Source: Candidatus Geohabitans tengchongensis
Lineage (GTDB): Bacteria; Sysuimicrobiota; Sysuimicrobiia; Sysuimicrobiales; Humicultoraceae
Direction of reading: 5' to 3'
DNA: 64,000 bases
NCBI GenBank assembly: GCA_031459625.1
Contig: JAVKIH010000008.1
Span: forward strand, 1-64,000
The notes below the pieces were generated by a model that ran no database searches, was not told the origin of the DNA, and saw only the letters and a program-made list of their open reading frames with translations. Made by a program: the position numbers and the translations under genes. This document shows, piece by piece, positions 4,255-46,776 of this stretch; position 1 is the stretch's first letter; each line of letters begins with the position of its first letter.

Positions 4255-6464
4255 GTCGCCCGCCGGACCGCATCGAGCTGCCGGACCCGGACGAGGTGCG
4301 CGAGCCCTTCGCCCGGTTCCTGGCCATCTTCATCGTCGTCACGACCTTCCTCGGCGCCCTGGTCGGCTTCCAGGAGAGCTATGCGGAGATGCGCGCCGAC
4401 CGGGCGGCGGTGGAGGCGCAGGACCTGGGCGTGCGCGCGGTGGGGGAGCTGCTGCGGGCGCAGGACCTGGCCAACGTCCACCTGGAGACCTACGCGCTCG
4501 TGGACGAGCAGCGCGCCCGGGAGGCGAACGCCCGCCTGCAGATGGTCGCGCAGGACGTCACCACCCCGGGCCAGCCGCGTGACACGTTCCTGCGGACGAT
4601 GGCCCGGTCGCGCGCGCTGGCTGCCCGCACGGCGGAGCTGACCGACATCCGCCTGACCGGGCCGGAGGGCCCGCTCCGGGACGCTGCGTTCCCCCACCGG
4701 TTCTTCGTGCAGCGCCTGGCCCGCCGGCACGAGCTGCTGGCGCTCCAGGACGCCGCCAACGAGGAGGACGCGGCCTGGCGCCGTCAGGCCAACACCTACG
4801 CGGCGGCGCTCACGGCCTTCGCCGTGGCCGTCTACCTGGCCGGCCTCTCCCTGACCCTGCGCACCGGCGTGACGCGCCTGCTGGCCGGGGTGGCGGTGGG
4901 GCTCGTCGCCGTGGGGACGGTGCTGGCCGGGCTGGCCGCGGCCGCGCCGCCGCGCCGCGCCCCGGCCGCCGCGGCCCGTGCCTACGCCGAGGGGATGGTG
5001 GGCCACGCCCTGGCCACGACCCCCGCCGCCTACCTGGAGGCACGGGCCCACTTCGACGAGGCCATCCGGCTGCGCCCCACCTTCGCCCGCGCCTACCTGG
5101 ACCGGGCGCGGGCGTCCTTCCGGAGCGGCTCACCGCAGACGATGGGGATGCTGAGCGTCACGGGGCCGAACGAGTTGCGCGCCTCGACAGCCGACCTGCT
5201 GCGGGCCTACGACCTGGGCCTGCGGTCGACCCCGGTCATGCACAACCTGGGGTTCGAGTTCTTCCTCCAGGCCCTCCTCCCCGGGGCCGACCGGGCCGCG
5301 CTGCTGGCGCGCAGCGTGCGCTTCGCGCAGGAGGCGCTGCGCCTGGCGCCCGACGACCCCATCCTCCACTACAACCTGGGCGTCGCACTGCTGGCGGCCG
5401 GGCGCACCGGTGCGGCCGAGGCCGCCTACACCTCGGCGGTGGAGGCCACCCGCGTCCTGCGCGTCCAGGGACCCGACGGTCCGCGCGAGGAGCCGCGCGG
5501 CAGCGGCTACCGCCGCTCCGCCGTGGCGGGAGCACTCACCGACCTGGAGATCCTCCTGCGGGCGCGCCCCGACCTGGGGGTCGAGGTGCGGCGGATGAAG
5601 GAGTTCATCGTGCGCTCGGTGTGGCCGCCCGACGCCGCCGCCCGGGGGGCGGAGGTGCGCGTGGCCGACCTGCGCGTCCACCTCTTCCCCGCCACCCTGC
5701 AGTGGATCGGCCGGCTCGAGGGCTACGATCCGGACCGGGACACGCTCTTCGTGCAGTGGTACCACCTCGATCCCGGTGGGCGGGGCTGGTCGGGGCTGCA
5801 CCGCGTCTCGGGCGCCGTACGCCCTCGCGTCAACCGCCGGGGGGAGTACTTTTGGGAGGTGCACTACCTACCGGCCACCTCGCCGCCTCGCTGTCTGCCA
5901 GCGGGGCGCTACCGGGTGGAACTGTACGGCAACGGCCGTCTGGCCGGGACGGCCGAGGCGGCGGCGGAGGATGCCACTTTCGAGGGGGCGGCCCTGCCCG
6001 ACCTGAACCTGGCCCTCTGTCGCCCGGTGGGGTGGGAGCGCTGGAGACGGTCCACGTTCGGGTTCGCCGGCGGGTACGTGAGCCCGGAGGGGACGCGTGG
6101 GGCGCTGCTCTTCCGCTACCACCCGCCGCTCGCCCTCGCCGCTGGCGCGGGCCAGCCGCAGGTCACCGCGGCGCACGTGGCAGCGACGCTGCGCATCCTC
6201 ACGGCTGCCGGCGTCTTCCCGGCGCAGCCGGCGTTCGTCCGGCCTAGCCGCACTTCTTACTTCCTGGGGATCGGGGCCGTCACCAAGGGGTGGTACGCCT
6301 ACGGGCCCGGGAGCGAGCGGGGCCAAGTCTACGTGGGGGCCGGACTGCACCCCGAAGACGGTGCGGTCCTGGTAGGGCTGGTCTTCGGCCCGGAGGACTA
6401 CTTCCGGACGCCCGAGCCGCTGCGGATCTTCGAGTCCTTCATCGTCCTGGAGTCCTACCGCTAG
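4251..6464 (+). CDS. Membrane protein with DUF4337-like N-terminus, TPR repeats and C-terminal domains of unknown function
   Basis: 3 TMs, then TPR-like segments (AIRLRPTFARAYLDRA; LAPDDPILHYNLGVALL). Confidence 0.65.
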   Translation: MSRPPDRIELPDPDEVREPFARFLAIFIVVTTFLGALVGFQESYAEMRADRAAVEAQDLGVRAVGELLRAQDLANVHLETYALVDEQRAREANARLQMVAQDVTTPGQPRDTFLRTMARSRALAARTAELTDIRLTGPEGPLRDAAFPHRFFVQRLARRHELLALQDAANEEDAAWRRQANTYAAALTAFAVAVYLAGLSLTLRTGVTRLLAGVAVGLVAVGTVLAGLAAAAPPRRAPAAAARAYAEGMVGHALATTPAAYLEARAHFDEAIRLRPTFARAYLDRARASFRSGSPQTMGMLSVTGPNELRASTADLLRAYDLGLRSTPVMHNLGFEFFLQALLPGADRAALLARSVRFAQEALRLAPDDPILHYNLGVALLAAGRTGAAEAAYTSAVEATRVLRVQGPDGPREEPRGSGYRRSAVAGALTDLEILLRARPDLGVEVRRMKEFIVRSVWPPDAAARGAEVRVADLRVHLFPATLQWIGRLEGYDPDRDTLFVQWYHLDPGGRGWSGLHRVSGAVRPRVNRRGEYFWEVHYLPATSPPRCLPAGRYRVELYGNGRLAGTAEAAAEDATFEGAALPDLNLALCRPVGWERWRRSTFGFAGGYVSPEGTRGALLFRYHPPLALAAGAGQPQVTAAHVAATLRILTAAGVFPAQPAFVRPSRTSYFLGIGAVTKGWYAYGPGSERGQVYVGAGLHPEDGAVLVGLVFGPEDYFRTPEPLRIFESFIVLESYR

Positions 6465-6477
6465 CGGGATCGGGCGG

Positions 6478-7854
6478 TCACGGCCCCGGCCGCGCCGGCG
6501 CACCCGCCGCCCGGATGGCGTCGCGGACGATCTCGACGATGCGGTCCACCTGCGCCTCGGTGACCACCAGCGGCGGCGCCAGCAGCAGGGTGTCGCCGAT
6601 GGGGTACTCCCCTGCGCTCCCCACCCGGATGCGCGTGAGCAGCCCCCGCCGGCGGGCTTCCGCCAGCACGCGCGTGCCGTAGCCCAGCGCCGGCGCCTTG
6701 GTGGCCCGGTCGGCGACGAATTCCACCCCGCACATGAGCCCGAGCCCGCGCACCTCCCCCACCGCCTGCAGGTCCGCCAGCGCGCTGCGCAGGCCCTCCA
6801 GCAGGCGGTGGCCCATCACCGCCGCCCGCTCCACCAGGCCCTCCCGCTCGTAGAGCTCCAGCGCCCGCACCCCCACCGCACAGCACGTCGGGTGGGCGGA
6901 GTAGGTGGCGGCGTGCATGAACCGCTCCGCCGGCGGGGCTTCCAGGATCGCCCGGTGAATGGCCCGCGAGACCATCACGCCACCGAGCGGCAGGTACGCG
7001 CTCGTCACCCCCTTGGCGAAGGTGACGAGGTCGGGCTGCACGCCCCAGTGGTCGAGGGCGAACCAGCGCCCCGTGCGGCCGAAGCCGGTGATGATCTCGT
7101 CGGCGATGAGGAGGACCTCGTAGCGGTCGCACACCTGGCGCAGGCGCGGGAAGTAGTCCGGCGGCGGGACGATCACCCCGCCCGCTCCCATGACCGGCTC
7201 GGCGATGACGGCGGCGACGGTCTCCGGCCCCTCGCGCTCGATGGCCTCGGCCACGGCGTCCGCCGCCTGCCCCGGGTGGCGGTAGGGGTAGGGCGGGGTG
7301 ACGTGCACGAAGCCCGGGACGGTGGGGCGGAACATCGTGTGGTAGGCGGGGATGCCGGTGGCCGACATCGCCGCCAGGGTGACGCCGTGGTAGGCGTGCC
7401 AGCGCGCAATGACCTTGGTCTTCTCCGGCCGCCCCCGACGTCGCCAGTAGTAGCGGGCGATCTTGAAGGCGCTCTCGTTGGACTCCGCACCGCCGGTGGT
7501 GAAGTACACCCCGGAGAGGTTGGGGTAGGCCAGGCGGATCAGGCGCCCGGCCAGGCGCGCCGCCGGCGCGTTCGTTAGGCCGACGTAGGCGGAGGCGTAG
7601 GCCAGGCGGCGCATCTGCTCAGAGGCCGCCTCGGCCAGCTCCGGCCGCCCGTGCCCCAGGTTGACGTTCCACAGCGAGGAGAGGCCGTCCAGGTACTCGC
7701 GCCCCTGGGCGTCGCGCAGGACGGCGCCGCTGCCCTCGGTGAGGAGCAGCGGGGCCTCGTGCTCCTGGGGGTGGTGGAGCGGGTGGATCAGGTGGGCCTG
7801 GTCGGCTTCGAGCAGCGCTGCGGCGTCGTGGCTTGTGGCGGTGTCGTCGGGCAT
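6478..7854 (-). CDS. Class III PLP aminotransferase (omega-amino acid/diamine type)
   Basis: LWNVNLGHG, GGAESNE, DEIITGFGRTG, PDLVTFAKG motifs. Confidence 0.93.
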   Translation of the reverse strand: MPDDTATSHDAAALLEADQAHLIHPLHHPQEHEAPLLLTEGSGAVLRDAQGREYLDGLSSLWNVNLGHGRPELAEAASEQMRRLAYASAYVGLTNAPAARLAGRLIRLAYPNLSGVYFTTGGAESNESAFKIARYYWRRRGRPEKTKVIARWHAYHGVTLAAMSATGIPAYHTMFRPTVPGFVHVTPPYPYRHPGQAADAVAEAIEREGPETVAAVIAEPVMGAGGVIVPPPDYFPRLRQVCDRYEVLLIADEIITGFGRTGRWFALDHWGVQPDLVTFAKGVTSAYLPLGGVMVSRAIHRAILEAPPAERFMHAATYSAHPTCCAVGVRALELYEREGLVERAAVMGHRLLEGLRSALADLQAVGEVRGLGLMCGVEFVADRATKAPALGYGTRVLAEARRRGLLTRIRVGSAGEYPIGDTLLLAPPLVVTEAQVDRIVEIVRDAIRAAGAPARPGP

Positions 7855-11392: not shown

Positions 11393-12838
11393 CTACGGCT
11401 CCAGGCGGATGGCTACCATCTGGATGTTCGTCATCTCCTCCATGGCGTAGCGCACGCCCTCGCGGCCGATGCCGCTGCGGCGGTTGCCGCCGTAGGGCAT
11501 GTGGTCGGCGCGGAAGGCCGGGGTGTCGTTCACGACCACCCCGCCGAAGTTGAGCCGCCGGATCGCCTGGAAGACCCGCCCCAGGTCGCGGGTGAAGACC
11601 GCCGCCTGGAGGCCGTACTCGGTGGCGTCGGCCTGGCGCAGCGCCTCCTCGAAGTCGTCGGCGGCGATGACCGAGGCCACGGGCGCGAACGCCTCCTGGG
11701 CCACCACCTTCATCTCCGGCCGGACGTCGGTGAGGACGGTGGGCCAGACCACGGCGCCCTCGCGCCGGCCGCCGGTGACGACGCGGGCGCCGCCCTGCAG
11801 GGCTTCGGTGATCCAGGCCTCGATGCGCTCGGCCTCGCGCCGGTCGATCATCGGGCCCACGTCCACCCGCTCGTCCAGCGGGTCGCCCACCACCATCGCC
11901 TCGCTGGCTTGGACGAAGCGGTCGAGGAAGGGCTCGTAGACACGGCGCTCGGTGTAGATGCGCTGCACGGAGATGCACACCTGACCGGAGTTGTAGTAGG
12001 CGCCCACGGCGCAGCGCCGGGCCACGTACTCCAGGTCGGCGTCCGGGGCGATGATCACCGGCGAGGTGTTGCCGAGCTCCAGCGTCACCTTCTTCAGCCC
12101 GGCCAGCCGGGTGATGCGCTCCCCCACGGCGGGGCTGCCGGTGAAGGTCACCTTGGCCACCCGGGGGTCGGTGACGAGCCACTCCCCCACCGTCCCGCCG
12201 GGGCCGTGCACCAGGTTGAGCGCCCCGGCGGGCAGCCCGGCCTCCTCCAGGACCCGGCAGAGGCGGACCGCGGTGAGGGGCGTGGCGCCGGCCGGCTTCA
12301 GCACCACCGTGTTGCCCGCCGCCAGGGCCGGGGCCACCTTGTGGGCCACCAGGTTCAGCGGGAAGTTGAAGGGCGTGATGGCGGCGATGACCCCCACCGG
12401 GCGGCGCACCCAGAAGCCGAAGTAGCCCTCGCCGGCGGGGACGGCGTCCAGGGGGACCGTCTCCCCGTGCAGCCGGCGGGCTTCTTCGGCGGCGATGGTG
12501 AAGGTGGTGATCCCCCGGTCCACCTCGATGCGGGCGTACTTCAGCGCCTTGCCCGCCTCGGCGGCGATGGTGCGGGCGAACCCCTCCCGGTCGGCGGCGA
12601 TCAGCTCGGCGGCGCGCCGGAGGATCGCGGCGCGGCGGTGGACCGGCATCTCCGCCATGACGGGCGCCGCCCGCTGGGCCGCCTCCACCGCGGCCTCGAC
12701 GTCCTCCCGCCGGGCCACGGGCAGGGTGCCCAGCACCTCGCCGGTGTACTTGTTCCGCACCTCATCGGGCGCACCGCCGTCCACCCACCGGCCGCCGATG
12801 AAGAGTCGGTACTCCACGGGAGCCTGCGTGCGCTCCAC
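11393..12838 (-). CDS. Aldehyde dehydrogenase family
   Basis: ITPFNFP, FTGS, LELG, GQVCIS, EAFAPV; GGAGG SD before GTG 12838. Confidence 0.93.
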   Translation of the reverse strand: MERTQAPVEYRLFIGGRWVDGGAPDEVRNKYTGEVLGTLPVARREDVEAAVEAAQRAAPVMAEMPVHRRAAILRRAAELIAADREGFARTIAAEAGKALKYARIEVDRGITTFTIAAEEARRLHGETVPLDAVPAGEGYFGFWVRRPVGVIAAITPFNFPLNLVAHKVAPALAAGNTVVLKPAGATPLTAVRLCRVLEEAGLPAGALNLVHGPGGTVGEWLVTDPRVAKVTFTGSPAVGERITRLAGLKKVTLELGNTSPVIIAPDADLEYVARRCAVGAYYNSGQVCISVQRIYTERRVYEPFLDRFVQASEAMVVGDPLDERVDVGPMIDRREAERIEAWITEALQGGARVVTGGRREGAVVWPTVLTDVRPEMKVVAQEAFAPVASVIAADDFEEALRQADATEYGLQAAVFTRDLGRVFQAIRRLNFGGVVVNDTPAFRADHMPYGGNRRSGIGREGVRYAMEEMTNIQMVAIRLEP

Positions 12839-13189
12839 GGACGTCACCTCCCGCACTCTGGTCTGTCTCGATCATAGCCCGGCGTGCCCACCCCAGGGAC
12901 TCACAGAGGGCGCGACGGCCGTCACCACGCGGGCGATCACTCGCCGCGGGGGCATGGGTGATGCCTGAAAACGGGGAGCCTTGAGGCGCGCGCAGCTCTT
13001 CGCCGGTCGGACCGGCGGTCGTCCTGGCGGGGTGATGCGGCAGGGTGGGTGGAACGCCTTCGGCGTGCCTGCGACGTCCCGGCTACGCCTGGGCCCCACA
13101 GCGGCGGCAACCCCGCACGACCCCGGCCGCCTTCGCCGCGGCGTCGGAGCCGTCGAGGTCACCGAGCCGCAGATCCGCCGCTGGCGCGG

Positions 13190-13219
13190 CTAGTTGTTGT
13201 TGTTGTTGTTGTTGTTCAT
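13190..13219 (-). CDS. Poly-asparagine micropeptide MNNNNNNNN
   Basis: ATG-(AAC)8-TAG; AGAGGAGG SD with GGAGG 7 nt upstream; 59 nt downstream of the AsnRS-like gene on the same strand. Confidence 0.85.
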   Translation of the reverse strand: MNNNNNNNN

Positions 13220-13278
13220 CCGTTCGCCTCCTCTCTGACTGGCGTGACCGGCACTCGGCCCGGTGTGACAGAGACCGC

Positions 13279-14217
13279 TCAGGCCATCGCGTACTCCCGC
13301 AATCCGTACCGGGCGTCCACGGGGAAGGGGATGACCGTGGTGACGTCGCTGGCGCCCCACAGGTACTGGATCAGCCGGTCGAACCCCAGCCCGTAGCCGG
13401 CGCGGCGGACCGGGTTGCCCTCGAAGAGCGCCAGGTAGGGCTCGAAGACCTGCGGGTCGCCGCCCGCCTCGACGAGCTGCCGGTACATCACGGAGGTGTA
13501 GAGCTTCTCCCGCAGGATGGCGACGTCGTGCTCCCGCGCCGCCGAGCCGAAGGTCTCGCCGCTCAGCGGCAGGAGCAGGTCGCAGCACTCGACGGTCCGC
13601 CCGCCGTTGTGCCGGCTGTCCAGCATGTTGAAGAACTTGATCTCGCGCGGGTAGCGGATCACTGAGACGATCCCGTACCGGTCGGTCAGCCGGGCTTCGT
13701 CCGCCGCGCTCAGGTCCGTGCCCCACGGCAGCCCCAGGTCACCGATGGCCTGCTCGTAGGGGACGACGGTGAACGTGGTCAGGTCCTGGAGCAGGGCGTC
13801 GCGGCGCGGGGCGGGCAGGGCGGGGTGCTCCAGGGCGGCGTGGATGACGTGGCGCACCAGCCGGTGCTCGTGGGCCACCAGGTCCTCCAGGTCCCAGTCG
13901 CGCGCCTCCGCCTCGACCAGCACGAACTCACACAGGTGGCGTCCGTCCGCGCGCGGCTCCGCCCGGAAGGAGCGGCCGCGCGTGATCACCCGCGGCAGGT
14001 CCCACCGCACCACGGCCACCTCCAGGTCGAGCTGGGCGGTCTGCCGCAGGAACTGGGTGCGGCCGAGGAAGTCCAGCCGGAAGACCGTCGGGACGTTCTC
14101 GCACGCCCCGGTGCCGGGGGTGATCTCGGGCGTCTCGAGCTCGATGAAGCCCTCGCTGCGGCAGAACTGGAAGACGGCGTCCATCATCGCCGCCCGGAAC
14201 TCGACCAGGTCACGCAA
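13279..14217 (-). CDS. Class IIb aminoacyl-tRNA synthetase paralogue, catalytic domain only (AsnRS2 / asparagine synthetase-like)
   Basis: Motif 1 GFIELETPEI, motif 2 SFRAE..RHLCEF, motif 3 GYGLGFDRL; no N-terminal OB anticodon domain; probable TTG start after GGAGGG. Confidence 0.85.
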   Translation of the reverse strand: MRDLVEFRAAMMDAVFQFCRSEGFIELETPEITPGTGACENVPTVFRLDFLGRTQFLRQTAQLDLEVAVVRWDLPRVITRGRSFRAEPRADGRHLCEFVLVEAEARDWDLEDLVAHEHRLVRHVIHAALEHPALPAPRRDALLQDLTTFTVVPYEQAIGDLGLPWGTDLSAADEARLTDRYGIVSVIRYPREIKFFNMLDSRHNGGRTVECCDLLLPLSGETFGSAAREHDVAILREKLYTSVMYRQLVEAGGDPQVFEPYLALFEGNPVRRAGYGLGFDRLIQYLWGASDVTTVIPFPVDARYGLREYAMA

Positions 14218-14370
14218 TTCCCATCCCTCCCTGCAGGCCACGCGGGCCCGTCGGTGTGTGGGCGCACTGCGCCCGACTCGTGCACGAACGGGGAACCCCT
14301 CCGGTCCGGATGCCCGTGGGCGATGCGGTCGGTGGCCGTGTCACCGTTCGGGGGCGGCGAGGGCGGGGAC

Positions 14371-14402
14371 AGGAAAAGCGCCGGGAGGCGTCTCCCGGCG
14401 CT
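14371..14402 (-). terminator. Intrinsic terminator (attenuator) in the leader of the AsnRS-like gene
   Basis: Minus strand AGCGCCGGGAG-ACGC-CTCCCGGCGCT followed by TTTCCT. Confidence 0.8.
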
Positions 14403-14427
14403 GCACGATGGCGTACTCCTGCTGCAT

Positions 14428-14460
14428 CCCTTCTCCGCCTCTCCGGACGAAGTTAAAGGG
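14428..14460 (-). promoter_or_regulatory. PyrR-binding RNA hairpin (anti-antiterminator)
   Basis: Minus strand CCCTTTAACTTCGTCCGGAGAGGCGGAGAAGGG matches PyrR consensus elements CUUUAA and UCCNGNGAGGY; CCCTT/AAGGG closing stem. Confidence 0.8.
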
Positions 14461-14486
14461 TCTCGTCCTGCACGCTTGCCAGGCCC

Positions 14487-14492
14487 ACTATA
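14487..14492 (-). promoter_or_regulatory. Putative -10 box for the PyrR leader
   Basis: TATAGT about 27 nt upstream of the hairpin; no good -35. Confidence 0.4.
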
Positions 14493-14592
14493 CGACGCGG
14501 GCTCGCCATCTCCTGCTGTCCCGCCGGACCTGGCCTCGAAAATTTCCCCCTCCCCCCGAAACCCCCGGCTCCCTGCCGATCTTTCACGTGGG

Positions 14593-15264
14593 ATGGGCGA
14601 CGTGCGGATGGTCGGGGCGCGGCAGGCGGGCGGGTTCACCCTGGTGGAGCTGGCGGCAGGCCTGGCCCTCCTGGGGCTGACGGCCAGCGCGGTCTACCTC
14701 ACCGCCACGGCCTCGACGTCGGTCCAGGCCCTGGACCGCGCGCGGGAGACTCAGCAGGCCCTGCGCACGGCGCTCGACCGGGTGGCGGAGGAGCTGCGCT
14801 GGGCGGAGGCGGTCCTGCCCGACCCCGGCTGCGGCGGGCTGTGTGCCGACCGCCTCACCGCCCAGGTGCCGGCGGGCAACCCGTTACGGGGTGCACCGTA
14901 CGTGGTCACCTTCCGGCGGGACGCACGGGAGCGTGAGGTGGAGCGACGGGTGGGCAGGGGCGTCACCAACGTGGCGGGGGGCATCGACGCGCTGGCCTTC
15001 GCCTACTTCACCGCCTCGGGCGCTCCGGCCGCCCGGGCCGAGGAGGTGCGGCGGGTGGCCATCCTCATCGAGGGGTCGCCGGGTGGCGCCGGGACGGGGC
15101 GGCAGCGGGCTACGGTCGAGGTCTTCCTGCGGAACGCCTCAGCAGCCGGCCGTCCCGGGGGTTCCACGCCCTCTCCTCCACCGTTGCCGGCGGCTCGCCC
15201 GACACCCGACCTCAGGCCCAGACCTCCCGATCCTCCGGTCGGTCCGGCCATCCGGCGGCGGTGA
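14593..15264 (+). CDS. Prepilin-type N-terminal cleavage/methylation protein (minor pilin, PilW-like)
   Basis: G|FTLVEL motif followed by a hydrophobic helix; Pro-rich tail. Confidence 0.78.
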   Translation: MGDVRMVGARQAGGFTLVELAAGLALLGLTASAVYLTATASTSVQALDRARETQQALRTALDRVAEELRWAEAVLPDPGCGGLCADRLTAQVPAGNPLRGAPYVVTFRRDAREREVERRVGRGVTNVAGGIDALAFAYFTASGAPAARAEEVRRVAILIEGSPGGAGTGRQRATVEVFLRNASAAGRPGGSTPSPPPLPAARPTPDLRPRPPDPPVGPAIRRR

Positions 15265-46701: not shown

Positions 46702-46776
46702 GGGCGCTTAGCTCAGAGGTAGAGCGCCTCTCTGACGCAGAGGAGGTCGGAGGTTCAAGTCCTCCAGCGCCCACCA
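46702..46776 (+). tRNA. tRNA-Val(GAC)
   Basis: Acceptor GGGCGCT/AGCGCCC, anticodon stem CCTCT/AGAGG with loop CTGACGC, T-loop TTCAAGT, encoded CCA. Confidence 0.97.

Follow-up and report, generated by a model that had tools for sequence, protein, structure and literature searches.

PyrR control of pyrimidine genes is classically described as the stabilisation of an anti-antiterminator, modulated by UMP/UTP and PRPP, in PMC6524683. The leader analysed here, from Candidatus Geohabitans tengchongensis, resembles the B. subtilis pyr attenuator and its Rfam family RF00515 in its CUUUAA bulge, its C-N-G-N-G-A hexaloop and its lower and upper stems, and resembles the B. subtilis system further in having a downstream terminator, a pyrR gene in the genome and sites before pyrB or pyrD in relatives. 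It is unlike the B. subtilis pyr leader in that the 3' strand of the hairpin is the Shine-Dalgarno (SD) sequence of a frame crossing the terminator, and in that its target lies outside the known pyr genes. In the Thermus ZO5 pyr leader, the PyrR site reportedly overlaps the ribosome-binding site of a leader peptide whose reading frame runs over the terminator, and in M. smegmatis PyrR is said to repress translation through a hairpin overlapping the ribosome-binding site. The present system differs from these two in its target gene, and in that the frame behind the hairpin is continuous with the regulated gene itself in 7 of 29 leaders.

The regulated gene encodes a paralog of asparaginyl-tRNA synthetase (AsnRS), which we call X. 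A review that covers synthetase paralogs (PMC7373986) names HisZ and YadB, and the word pyrimidine is absent from the passages used. X is like archaeal AsnA (PRK06462; structures 1nnh and 3p8t) and HisZ in being a lone catalytic domain reused outside translation, and unlike archaeal AsnA in scoring far under the family cut-offs, in its pocket residues and in its pyrimidine context. The AsnA pocket carries a lysine and an aspartate for the reversed binding of aspartate. With AsnRS (class IIb; 1x54, TIGR00457) X shares the catalytic fold, motifs 2 and 3 and the amino-acid pocket, and it departs from AsnRS in having no anticodon-binding domain, in forming its own clade, in the exchange of Tyr333 for Asn and in an added helix.

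The enzymes that X may bypass are CarAB, PyrB and PyrC. X shares with that route the operon slot before pyrD-pyrF-pyrE, the regulator and, in some members, an MGS-type domain; unlike that route, to which it shows no homology, X would be one ATP-dependent enzyme in place of three and would take the ring nitrogen from the asparagine amide. N-alkoxycarbonyl-asparagine reportedly cyclises to dihydroorotate, a chemical precedent for such a ring closure. Aminoacyl adenylates give N-carboxyanhydrides within seconds at millimolar, physiological bicarbonate, as described for a tyrosine derivative, not for asparagine, in PMC4262824.

Materials and Methods

The window is the whole stretch of DNA analysed, 64,000 nt, which is positions 1-64,000 of contig JAVKIH010000008.1 (assembly GCA_031459625.1). 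The source genome, G000, is 2.76 Mb in size and 94% complete, and it was compared with 40 relatives (41 genomes in all). X denotes the protein encoded downstream of the PyrR-type leader (Table 1), and its family. A GTDB scan returned 458 relatives of X, of which the best 80, all archaeal, were used; the best 80 of 117 metagenome loci were used, and ten viral loci were examined. Archaeal gene-content counts refer to 50 carrier genomes of the best 80, which are incomplete and for which completeness values are not given. The tree was built with FastTree from 317 sequences. RF00515 has a gathering score of 54 bits, and sites in relatives were counted at E 0.05 or better. The hairpin alignment holds 26 of 29 hairpins, three near-duplicates being left out.

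Table 1. Features of the X locus, in window positions.
Feature	Position	Strand	Basis and remarks
-10-like hexamer TATAGT, candidate promoter element	14487..14492	-	by eye; no good -35; inferred only
Upstream arm GGACGAG	14462..14468	-	folds of growing transcripts; can pair with CUUCGUCC and open the PyrR hairpin
PyrR-type binding hairpin	14428..14460	-	RF00515 match, folding, covariation
Leader ORF, 28 codons	14341..14427	-	starts right behind the hairpin, crosses the terminator, stops 33 nt past it
Intrinsic-terminator-like hairpin with short U-tract	14374..14402	-	folding
X, AsnRS paralog, candidate dihydroorotate synthetase	13279..14217	-	profile, structure and tree comparisons
SD AGGAGG and minigene ATG-(AAC)8-TAG	13190..13232	-	SD 13232-13227, frame 13219-13190
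Hairpin-rich 3' region behind the minigene	13030..13189 (limits approximate)	-	folds; 83% identity over 215 nt to locus L196

Results

A PyrR-type hairpin and a terminator precede X

The first-pass annotation had read the leader as a PyrR-binding hairpin because its loop fitted the consensus. The RF00515 model aligned over its positions 1-115 to 14463-14371 of the minus strand with 45.7 bits (E 1.3e-4 in 1.8 kb; E 4.7e-5 genome-wide, with one match of 13 candidates), and the bulge, the hexaloop and the stems were found over the whole model, which bears out the consensus claim. The score lies under the 54-bit cut-off, and a scan of the element at the gathering threshold gave no PyrR match; the proposed Infernal check against the Rfam model thus yields a whole-model match that the default cut-off misses, and the element, which behaves like a PyrR site, is not filed as an Rfam member. 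Unlike RF00515 members, 27 of the 28 sites in this lineage, that of G000 included, score under the cut-off, and one scores over it.

The segments of the hairpin are CCCUU-UAA-CUUCGUC-CGGAGA-GGCGGAG-AAGGG, with the hexaloop CGGAGA at 14445-14440. The terminator reported earlier, with an 11-bp stem 25 nt behind the hairpin, is present as described; its stem (14402-14377, minus strand) has 9 G-C pairs and a 4-nt loop. Folding of the 100-nt leader gives -46.6 kcal/mol, with a z-score of -3.5, and 1 of 200 shuffled sequences folded equally well. The genome (2.76 Mb) has 35 copies of the 11-nt core of the site and a single copy of the full TTTAA-N3-6-core motif. No pyrR had been noted in the window; the genome search that had been suggested revealed one on contig C9 (NF003549, 255.5 bits against a cut-off of 138). 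The uniqueness of the site and the presence of pyrR together support its identity as a PyrR site. The pyrD-pyrF-pyrE genes of G000 are on contig C12.

A consensus promoter scan of the leader region found none. The sole Rfam match of the window at the gathering threshold was a tRNA gene (46702-46773, plus strand). The diverging upstream gene (about 14589-15264, plus strand) encodes a pilin-type N-terminal motif, GFTLVEL, seen by eye. A single RNA run gave one contig of flat depth, in which DNA was possibly included.

The site recurs in relatives

Among the 41 genomes, 25 had an RF00515 match, giving 28 sites that stand before pyrB (8), pyrD (3), a cytosine-deaminase-like gene (14) and X (3). 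The equivalent sites before pyrB and pyrD in relatives agree with the earlier assignment of the downstream gene to a pyrimidine regulon. The stem covaries: in the 26 aligned hairpins, 83% of its cells were paired, the figure for shuffled sequences being 78% (0 of 500) and that for slid controls 45-59%; one stem pair flips between C-G and G-C, 17 to 9, a kind of count that relatedness inflates. The loop letters were invariant in these 26 sites.

We also looked at X carriers whose leader is without the PyrR consensus. None of the four tested had pyrR, which was not found in G011, G012 and G017; in G001 the leader is truncated where the contig ends. In G025, a consensus leader before X and a pyrR gene are both present. 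The loss of the leader consensus together with pyrR serves as an internal control and supports the PyrR-site reading. Taken together, these data indicate that the element is very probably a PyrR site, which supports the placement of X in the pyrimidine regulon.

The consensus-less leaders (L019, L020, L021, L075, L079, L193, L194 and L197) lie about 200 nt before X. Their upstream hairpin is a different one; the SD, the leader ORF and the terminator are kept, and most of the leader ORFs end on the start of X.

The gene found behind a PyrR leader in 14 places encodes an amidohydrolase like PRK06886, under the cut-off of that model, in relatives of the same family (L055-L057, L059-L063, L066-L069, L071 and L073; for example L082:9688-10878, minus strand). 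Its best solved relative is a cytosine deaminase (E 1e-11). Several of the genomes with this gene keep carB and pyrD and have no pyrB or pyrC ortholog and no X, and the gene may therefore serve salvage or yet another route to dihydroorotate.

The leader frame suggests translation-coupled attenuation

The leader ORF has its SD-like GGAG/AAGGG (14436-14428) in the 3' strand of the hairpin, and 124 nt separate the end of this frame from X. In 27 of 29 leaders, the purine-rich 3' strand of the hairpin is followed after 1-13 nt by a start codon (GTG accepted in four; the ATG background is 0.125). Twenty leader ORFs are open, with 18-43 codons, and 17 of these stop close to a start codon, at -1 to +5 nt. 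At L196, the locus of a 98%-identical ortholog, the leader ORF has equal length with TGA changed to TAA. The weak points of the G000 leader are an SD weaker than in relatives, the short U-tract and the 124-nt distance to X.

An alternative antiterminator fold had also been proposed. GAGGCG (14441-14436) can indeed pair with CGCCUC (14390-14385) on the minus strand, but the fold is favoured in a narrow range of transcript lengths only, namely when the 3' end lies at 14386-14383. The fold of lowest energy for these transcripts has the GAGGCG/CGCCUC helix, drops the PyrR loop and also needs the upstream hairpin formed by GGACGAG and CUUCGUCC. The 6-bp antiterminator helix has -9.0 kcal/mol, against -24.1 kcal/mol for the terminator.

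We consider it probable that control is by translation-coupled attenuation, instead of or beside an antiterminator, because a conserved SD and leader ORF are built into the hairpin. The anatomy suggests that PyrR-UMP would stabilise the hairpin and mask the leader ribosome-binding site, that no ribosome would then trail the polymerase, and that the terminator would form. When PyrR-UMP is absent, translation of the 28-codon leader would carry a ribosome across the 5' arm of the terminator, with the alternative fold as a help, and the polymerase would go on past the terminator. High UMP would thus shut off X through hairpin, leader and terminator. It is doubtful that the switch is instead a classical Bacillus-type RNA antiterminator with an incidental leader ORF. 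Such a switch would suit the transcripts ending at 14386-14383, whose fold sequesters the 5' arm of the terminator and loses the PyrR loop, and the two leaders that have no start codon behind the hairpin (G039 and G028). However, the full-length leader favours hairpin plus terminator over the antiterminator form (-45.9 against -37.8 kcal/mol), no common antiterminator fold was found across the 29 leaders, and neither the layout from SD and start through the terminator in 27 of 29 leaders nor the ending of 17 of 20 leader ORFs at a start codon is expected from it. Within the preferred translation-coupled scheme, the GAGGCG/CGCCUC helix may contribute to switching.

X is an AsnRS paralog without an anticodon-binding domain

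X has 312 residues from the likely TTG start at 14217 and 320 from an upstream GTG at 14241. Its only Pfam domain is PF00152, the class II catalytic domain; the OB-fold anticodon domain that AsnRS has at its N terminus is missing. G000 has a gene for a complete AsnRS at another place. The gene had been named 'asparagine synthetase-like', a name that did not survive comparison: X scored 68.6, 46.1 and 23.9 bits against models of asparagine synthetase A (cut-offs 368, 309 and 389) and 150.7 and 144.5 bits against AsnRS models (cut-offs 414 and 342.6), under every cut-off and closest to AsnRS. Against solved proteins, AsnRS reached 98 bits and AsnA 33 bits. The best solved relative is P. horikoshii AsnRS (PDB 1x54), to which the AlphaFold model of X (pLDDT 94) fits with a TM score of 0.83. 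In the tree, 271 family members were split from 39 canonical AsnRS and 7 shorter AsnRS-like rows with a support of 0.93.

E40, T60, Q62, E102 and R228 of X align to E168, S188, Q190, E228 and R364 of 1x54. E102 is present in 271 of 271 and R228 in 255 of 271 family sequences, motifs 2 and 3 are kept, and the residues that we take to bind ATP, Mg and asparagine are near-invariant over the 271. The pocket has L65 and E66 (QLxLE) with E102, as in AsnRS, and not the lysine and aspartate of AsnA. The position of Tyr333 in 1x54, Tyr in 39 of 39 canonical AsnRS, is Asn197 in 241 of 271 family members, and the family has an extra helix at 242-249. Cys39 was considered as a family-specific nucleophile and rejected, since 23 of 39 canonical AsnRS share it.

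One family member (P0109) has an intein carrying a LAGLIDADG domain, and three (P0144, P0189 and P0207) have N-terminal extensions of 430-500 residues with no Pfam match. In a protein atlas X matched only PF00152 clusters with generic names, and ten unannotated records of a phage collection have 27-29% identity to it.

In some genomes X neighbours or is fused to late pyrimidine genes

An X ortholog was found in 8 of 40 relatives, with pyrD directly after X in five of the eight; one ortholog of the same family is labelled Armatimonadetes by NCBI. G001, G011 and G017 have the order X-pyrD-pyrF-pyrE, and in the same slot G033 has pyrB-pyrC-pyrD-pyrF-pyrE. In G025, G031 and G000, X stands alone behind the PyrR site and pyrD-F-E lie elsewhere. 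Among the best 80 of 458 archaeal loci, pyrD, pyrE, pyrF or pyrG lies within 6 kb in 25, of which 15 are related Bathyarchaeia, and neither pyrB nor pyrC was found within that distance. The best 80 of 117 metagenome loci include 28 with a pyr gene nearby, 14 with an X-MGS fusion and one, L249, with a pyrC-like 3' end directly before X. One of ten viral loci has X-pyrF-pyrE (L184). No pyrB was found in these 170 neighbourhoods (80 archaeal, 80 metagenome, 10 viral), and 55 of the 80 archaeal and 52 of the 80 metagenome loci, many of them short, have no pyr gene nearby. Scanning of 24 long hits revealed three fusions, X-MGS-PyrD-PRTase, X-MGS-PyrD and X-MGS. We judge it likely, with good confidence, that X feeds PyrD in pyrimidine supply.

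X is also found on viral contigs (L183-L190), at L187 amid five tRNA genes, none for asparagine. No asparagine tRNA was found near X in a small sample of 10 viral and 5 bacterial loci with 6-kb flanks. The aldehyde dehydrogenase gene downstream (11393-12856 of the window, minus strand) is not supported as part of the system, as L196 has another, convergent gene there.

Carriers of X seldom have carB

We then compared gene contents. carB was present in none of nine bacterial X carriers, six of which are more than 90% complete, and in 25 of 32 non-carrier relatives, kin that are not independent. In archaea, it was present in 2 of 50 carriers, compared with 71 of 141 genomes in a class-wide sample around G055, and in 1 of 20 Bathyarchaeia carriers. 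About three of the 141 have X, judged by score, none of them with carB; half of the 141 are without carB, mostly also without X. No pyrB or pyrC of the G033 type was found in the nine bacterial carriers; 9 of the 32 non-carriers have them, and the exclusion with pyrB is not significant (p 0.17).

The 50 archaeal carriers include 27 with pyrB, 27 with pyrC and 37 with a pyrD match, 27 of these over the cut-off; no pyrD was found in 13. All three matches occur together in 23, and 11 have a pyrD match with neither pyrB nor pyrC. In G078 and G086, X lies beside pyrE-pyrD-pyrF and there is neither a pyrB nor a pyrC match. Five of five tested genomes with pyrB and without carB were also without X, three of them with carbamate kinase, which in two small sets of carriers was found in 1 of 5 and 5 of 5. 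G098 and G130, of the class of G055, have pyrB, and carB, carbamate kinase and X were not found in these possibly incomplete genomes. Nine relatives without X, pyrB and pyrC keep pyrD over the cut-off, so the pyrimidine gap does not demand X.

G000 itself encodes an ATCase-like protein (243.5 bits; TIGR00670 cut-off 237) that sits in a carbamate kinase cluster; two residues, the Lys of KGES and the Arg of RxQxE, are missing from it. A second protein resembles dihydroorotase and exceeds the TIGR00857 cut-off, and it has MPT and DHAPF, not MPN and DHAPH. Key residues for the substrate are thus wanting in both. The catabolic-looking cluster at G000:C12:27400-40600 (L014, L015) has a xanthine-dehydrogenase-like gene, a carbamate kinase, an amidohydrolase and two transcarbamylases, one of them ATCase-like without the aspartate-binding Lys and Arg. 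The idea that retained pyrB and pyrC run backwards for arginine synthesis was not supported; argG was found in none of five carriers.

An asparagine-only minigene follows X

The minigene, which has a strong SD, lies 59 nt past the stop codon of X, and its sequence ATG-(AAC)8-TAG is unique in G000 and in the 61 genomes searched. At L196 (about 4960-5005), the minigene and the downstream hairpins are kept and the next gene is convergent; at L173 (Aenigmatarchaeota, about 6940-6975), an SD and a five-Asn minigene follow X. In total, 3 of 174 loci have such a minigene behind X, and these three belong to two domains; the downstream controls gave two Lys-rich and one Gln-rich frame. The association with X is suggestive and not strong. 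It points to asparagine as the relevant metabolite and fits either the use or the making of asparagine by X. The minigene is possibly a sensor that acts on the stability of the 3' end.

Discussion

From comparisons of sequence and gene context, we propose that X carries out the net reaction Asn + CO2 + ATP -> dihydroorotate and so bypasses CarAB, PyrB and PyrC, a reading to which we give a probability of about 0.5. From its residues and context, X, like AsnRS, would form asparaginyl-AMP. As no tRNA would take up the asparaginyl group, the alpha-amine would react with CO2 to a carbamate, the N-carboxyanhydride would close and AMP would leave; the side-chain amide nitrogen would then attack C2 of this anhydride to give L-dihydroorotate, which would pass to PyrD-PyrE-PyrF. 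Alternatively, X might adenylate N-carboxy-asparagine directly, as TsaC-like chemistry would have it, with an identical net reaction. Asparagine would provide all atoms of dihydroorotate except C2. In favour of this reaction are the adjacency and fusion of X to PyrD, the scarcity of carB among carriers, the kept asparagine pocket, the Asn-only minigene and the 11 archaeal carriers that have a pyrD match with neither pyrB nor pyrC. Points against it are the 27 of 50 archaeal carriers with pyrB and the 27 with pyrC, the 13 in which no pyrD was found, the many genomes of the class-wide sample without both carB and X, the occurrence of pyrB without carB where X is absent, the nine relatives that keep pyrD without X, pyrB and pyrC, the non-significant exclusion with pyrB, the ATCase-like protein, carbamate kinase and dihydroorotase-like protein of G000, the pyrC-like end at L249 and the loci with no pyr gene nearby.

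Two other explanations leave part of the known route in place. X may yield an open-chain ureido precursor, either N-carbamoyl-aspartate or a beta-ureido compound from aspartate and urea, with an amidohydrolase closing the ring, so that CarAB and PyrB would be bypassed. This is unlikely, although pyrC in 27 of 50 archaeal carriers, the pyrC-like end adjoining X at L249 and the exclusion being strongest with carB are what it would lead one to expect. The amidohydrolases of G000, G011, G025 and G031 score just over the TIGR00857 cut-off, but those of G000 and G025 are without parts of the HxHLRD / MPN / DHAPH signature of true PyrC. G078 and G086, with X beside pyrD, pyrE and pyrF and no pyrC match, the X-PyrD fusions without a PyrC in between, and a pocket of the Asn type, not the Asp type, also argue against an open-chain product. 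The other explanation has X substitute for carbamoyl-phosphate synthetase alone, supplying carbamoyl-AMP or carbamoyl phosphate to a normal PyrB and PyrC. A pyrB ortholog is absent from nine of nine bacterial carriers, six of them more than 90% complete, pyrB lies in 0 of 170 X neighbourhoods, pyrB without carB is common where X is absent, and the amino-acid pocket is fully conserved, all of which makes a carbamoyl donor improbable; in its favour are archaeal carriers with carB in 2 of 50 and yet pyrB in 27, carbamate kinase in only 1 of 5 tested archaeal carriers of this type, and the fusion of X to an MGS-type domain, which is present on CarB too. In CarB, the MGS domain has an allosteric role.

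X might also make no dihydroorotate precursor at all. An ammonia-dependent asparagine synthetase of the AsnA type, merely co-regulated with pyrimidine genes, would leave the PyrD fusion and the PyrR control unexplained, and it sits badly with a score of 68.6 bits against a cut-off of 368, with a match to solved AsnA that is weaker than the one to AsnRS (33 and 98 bits), with QLxLE and E102 where AsnA has its lysine/aspartate pocket, and with AsnB in G000 and G017 and GatB in five of five tested genomes. Archaeal AsnA is likewise an anticodon-less paralog, G001, G025 and G031 have AsnRS and no clear AsnB, and the Asn-codon minigene suits a maker of asparagine equally well as a consumer; we nevertheless think there is little chance that X is such an enzyme. 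The near-invariance of the ATP-, Mg- and amino-acid-binding residues in 271 sequences speaks against X being a non-catalytic, HisZ-like regulator or sensor of PyrD or late pyrimidine enzymes in cells that take up dihydroorotate or orotate, as do the 13 of 50 archaeal carriers in which no pyrD was found and the exclusion with carB. X does adjoin PyrD and is fused to it, relatives without X, pyrB and pyrC keep pyrD, and HisZ offers a precedent (PMC7373986); such a regulator is quite improbable all the same.

Returning to synthesis of dihydroorotate from asparagine, we tentatively extend it, at less than even odds, to a synthetase-derived family of uncultured bacteria, archaea and some viruses that would make dihydroorotate in one site via an adenylate and an N-carboxyanhydride, with the X gene of G000 sensing UMP at its 5' end through the PyrR leader and asparagine at its 3' end through the minigene. 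What is new would be this pathway from asparagine to dihydroorotate, as read from sequence, and not the hairpin. A literature search found no such enzyme; its coverage of subscription papers was partial, and absence from print is not implied.

The PyrR leader is a line of evidence, separate from gene order, that links this unassigned enzyme family to UMP supply. Were the proposal true, pyrimidines would have a second de novo route, and an N-carboxyanhydride would serve an enzyme as its intermediate. Many uncultured bacteria and archaea that are scored as pathway-incomplete, without carAB, pyrB and pyrC and with pyrD, pyrE and pyrF kept, could then be prototrophs when given asparagine. The half-reaction of a synthetase, joined to spontaneous CO2 chemistry, would serve nucleotide synthesis, which would bear on early evolution.
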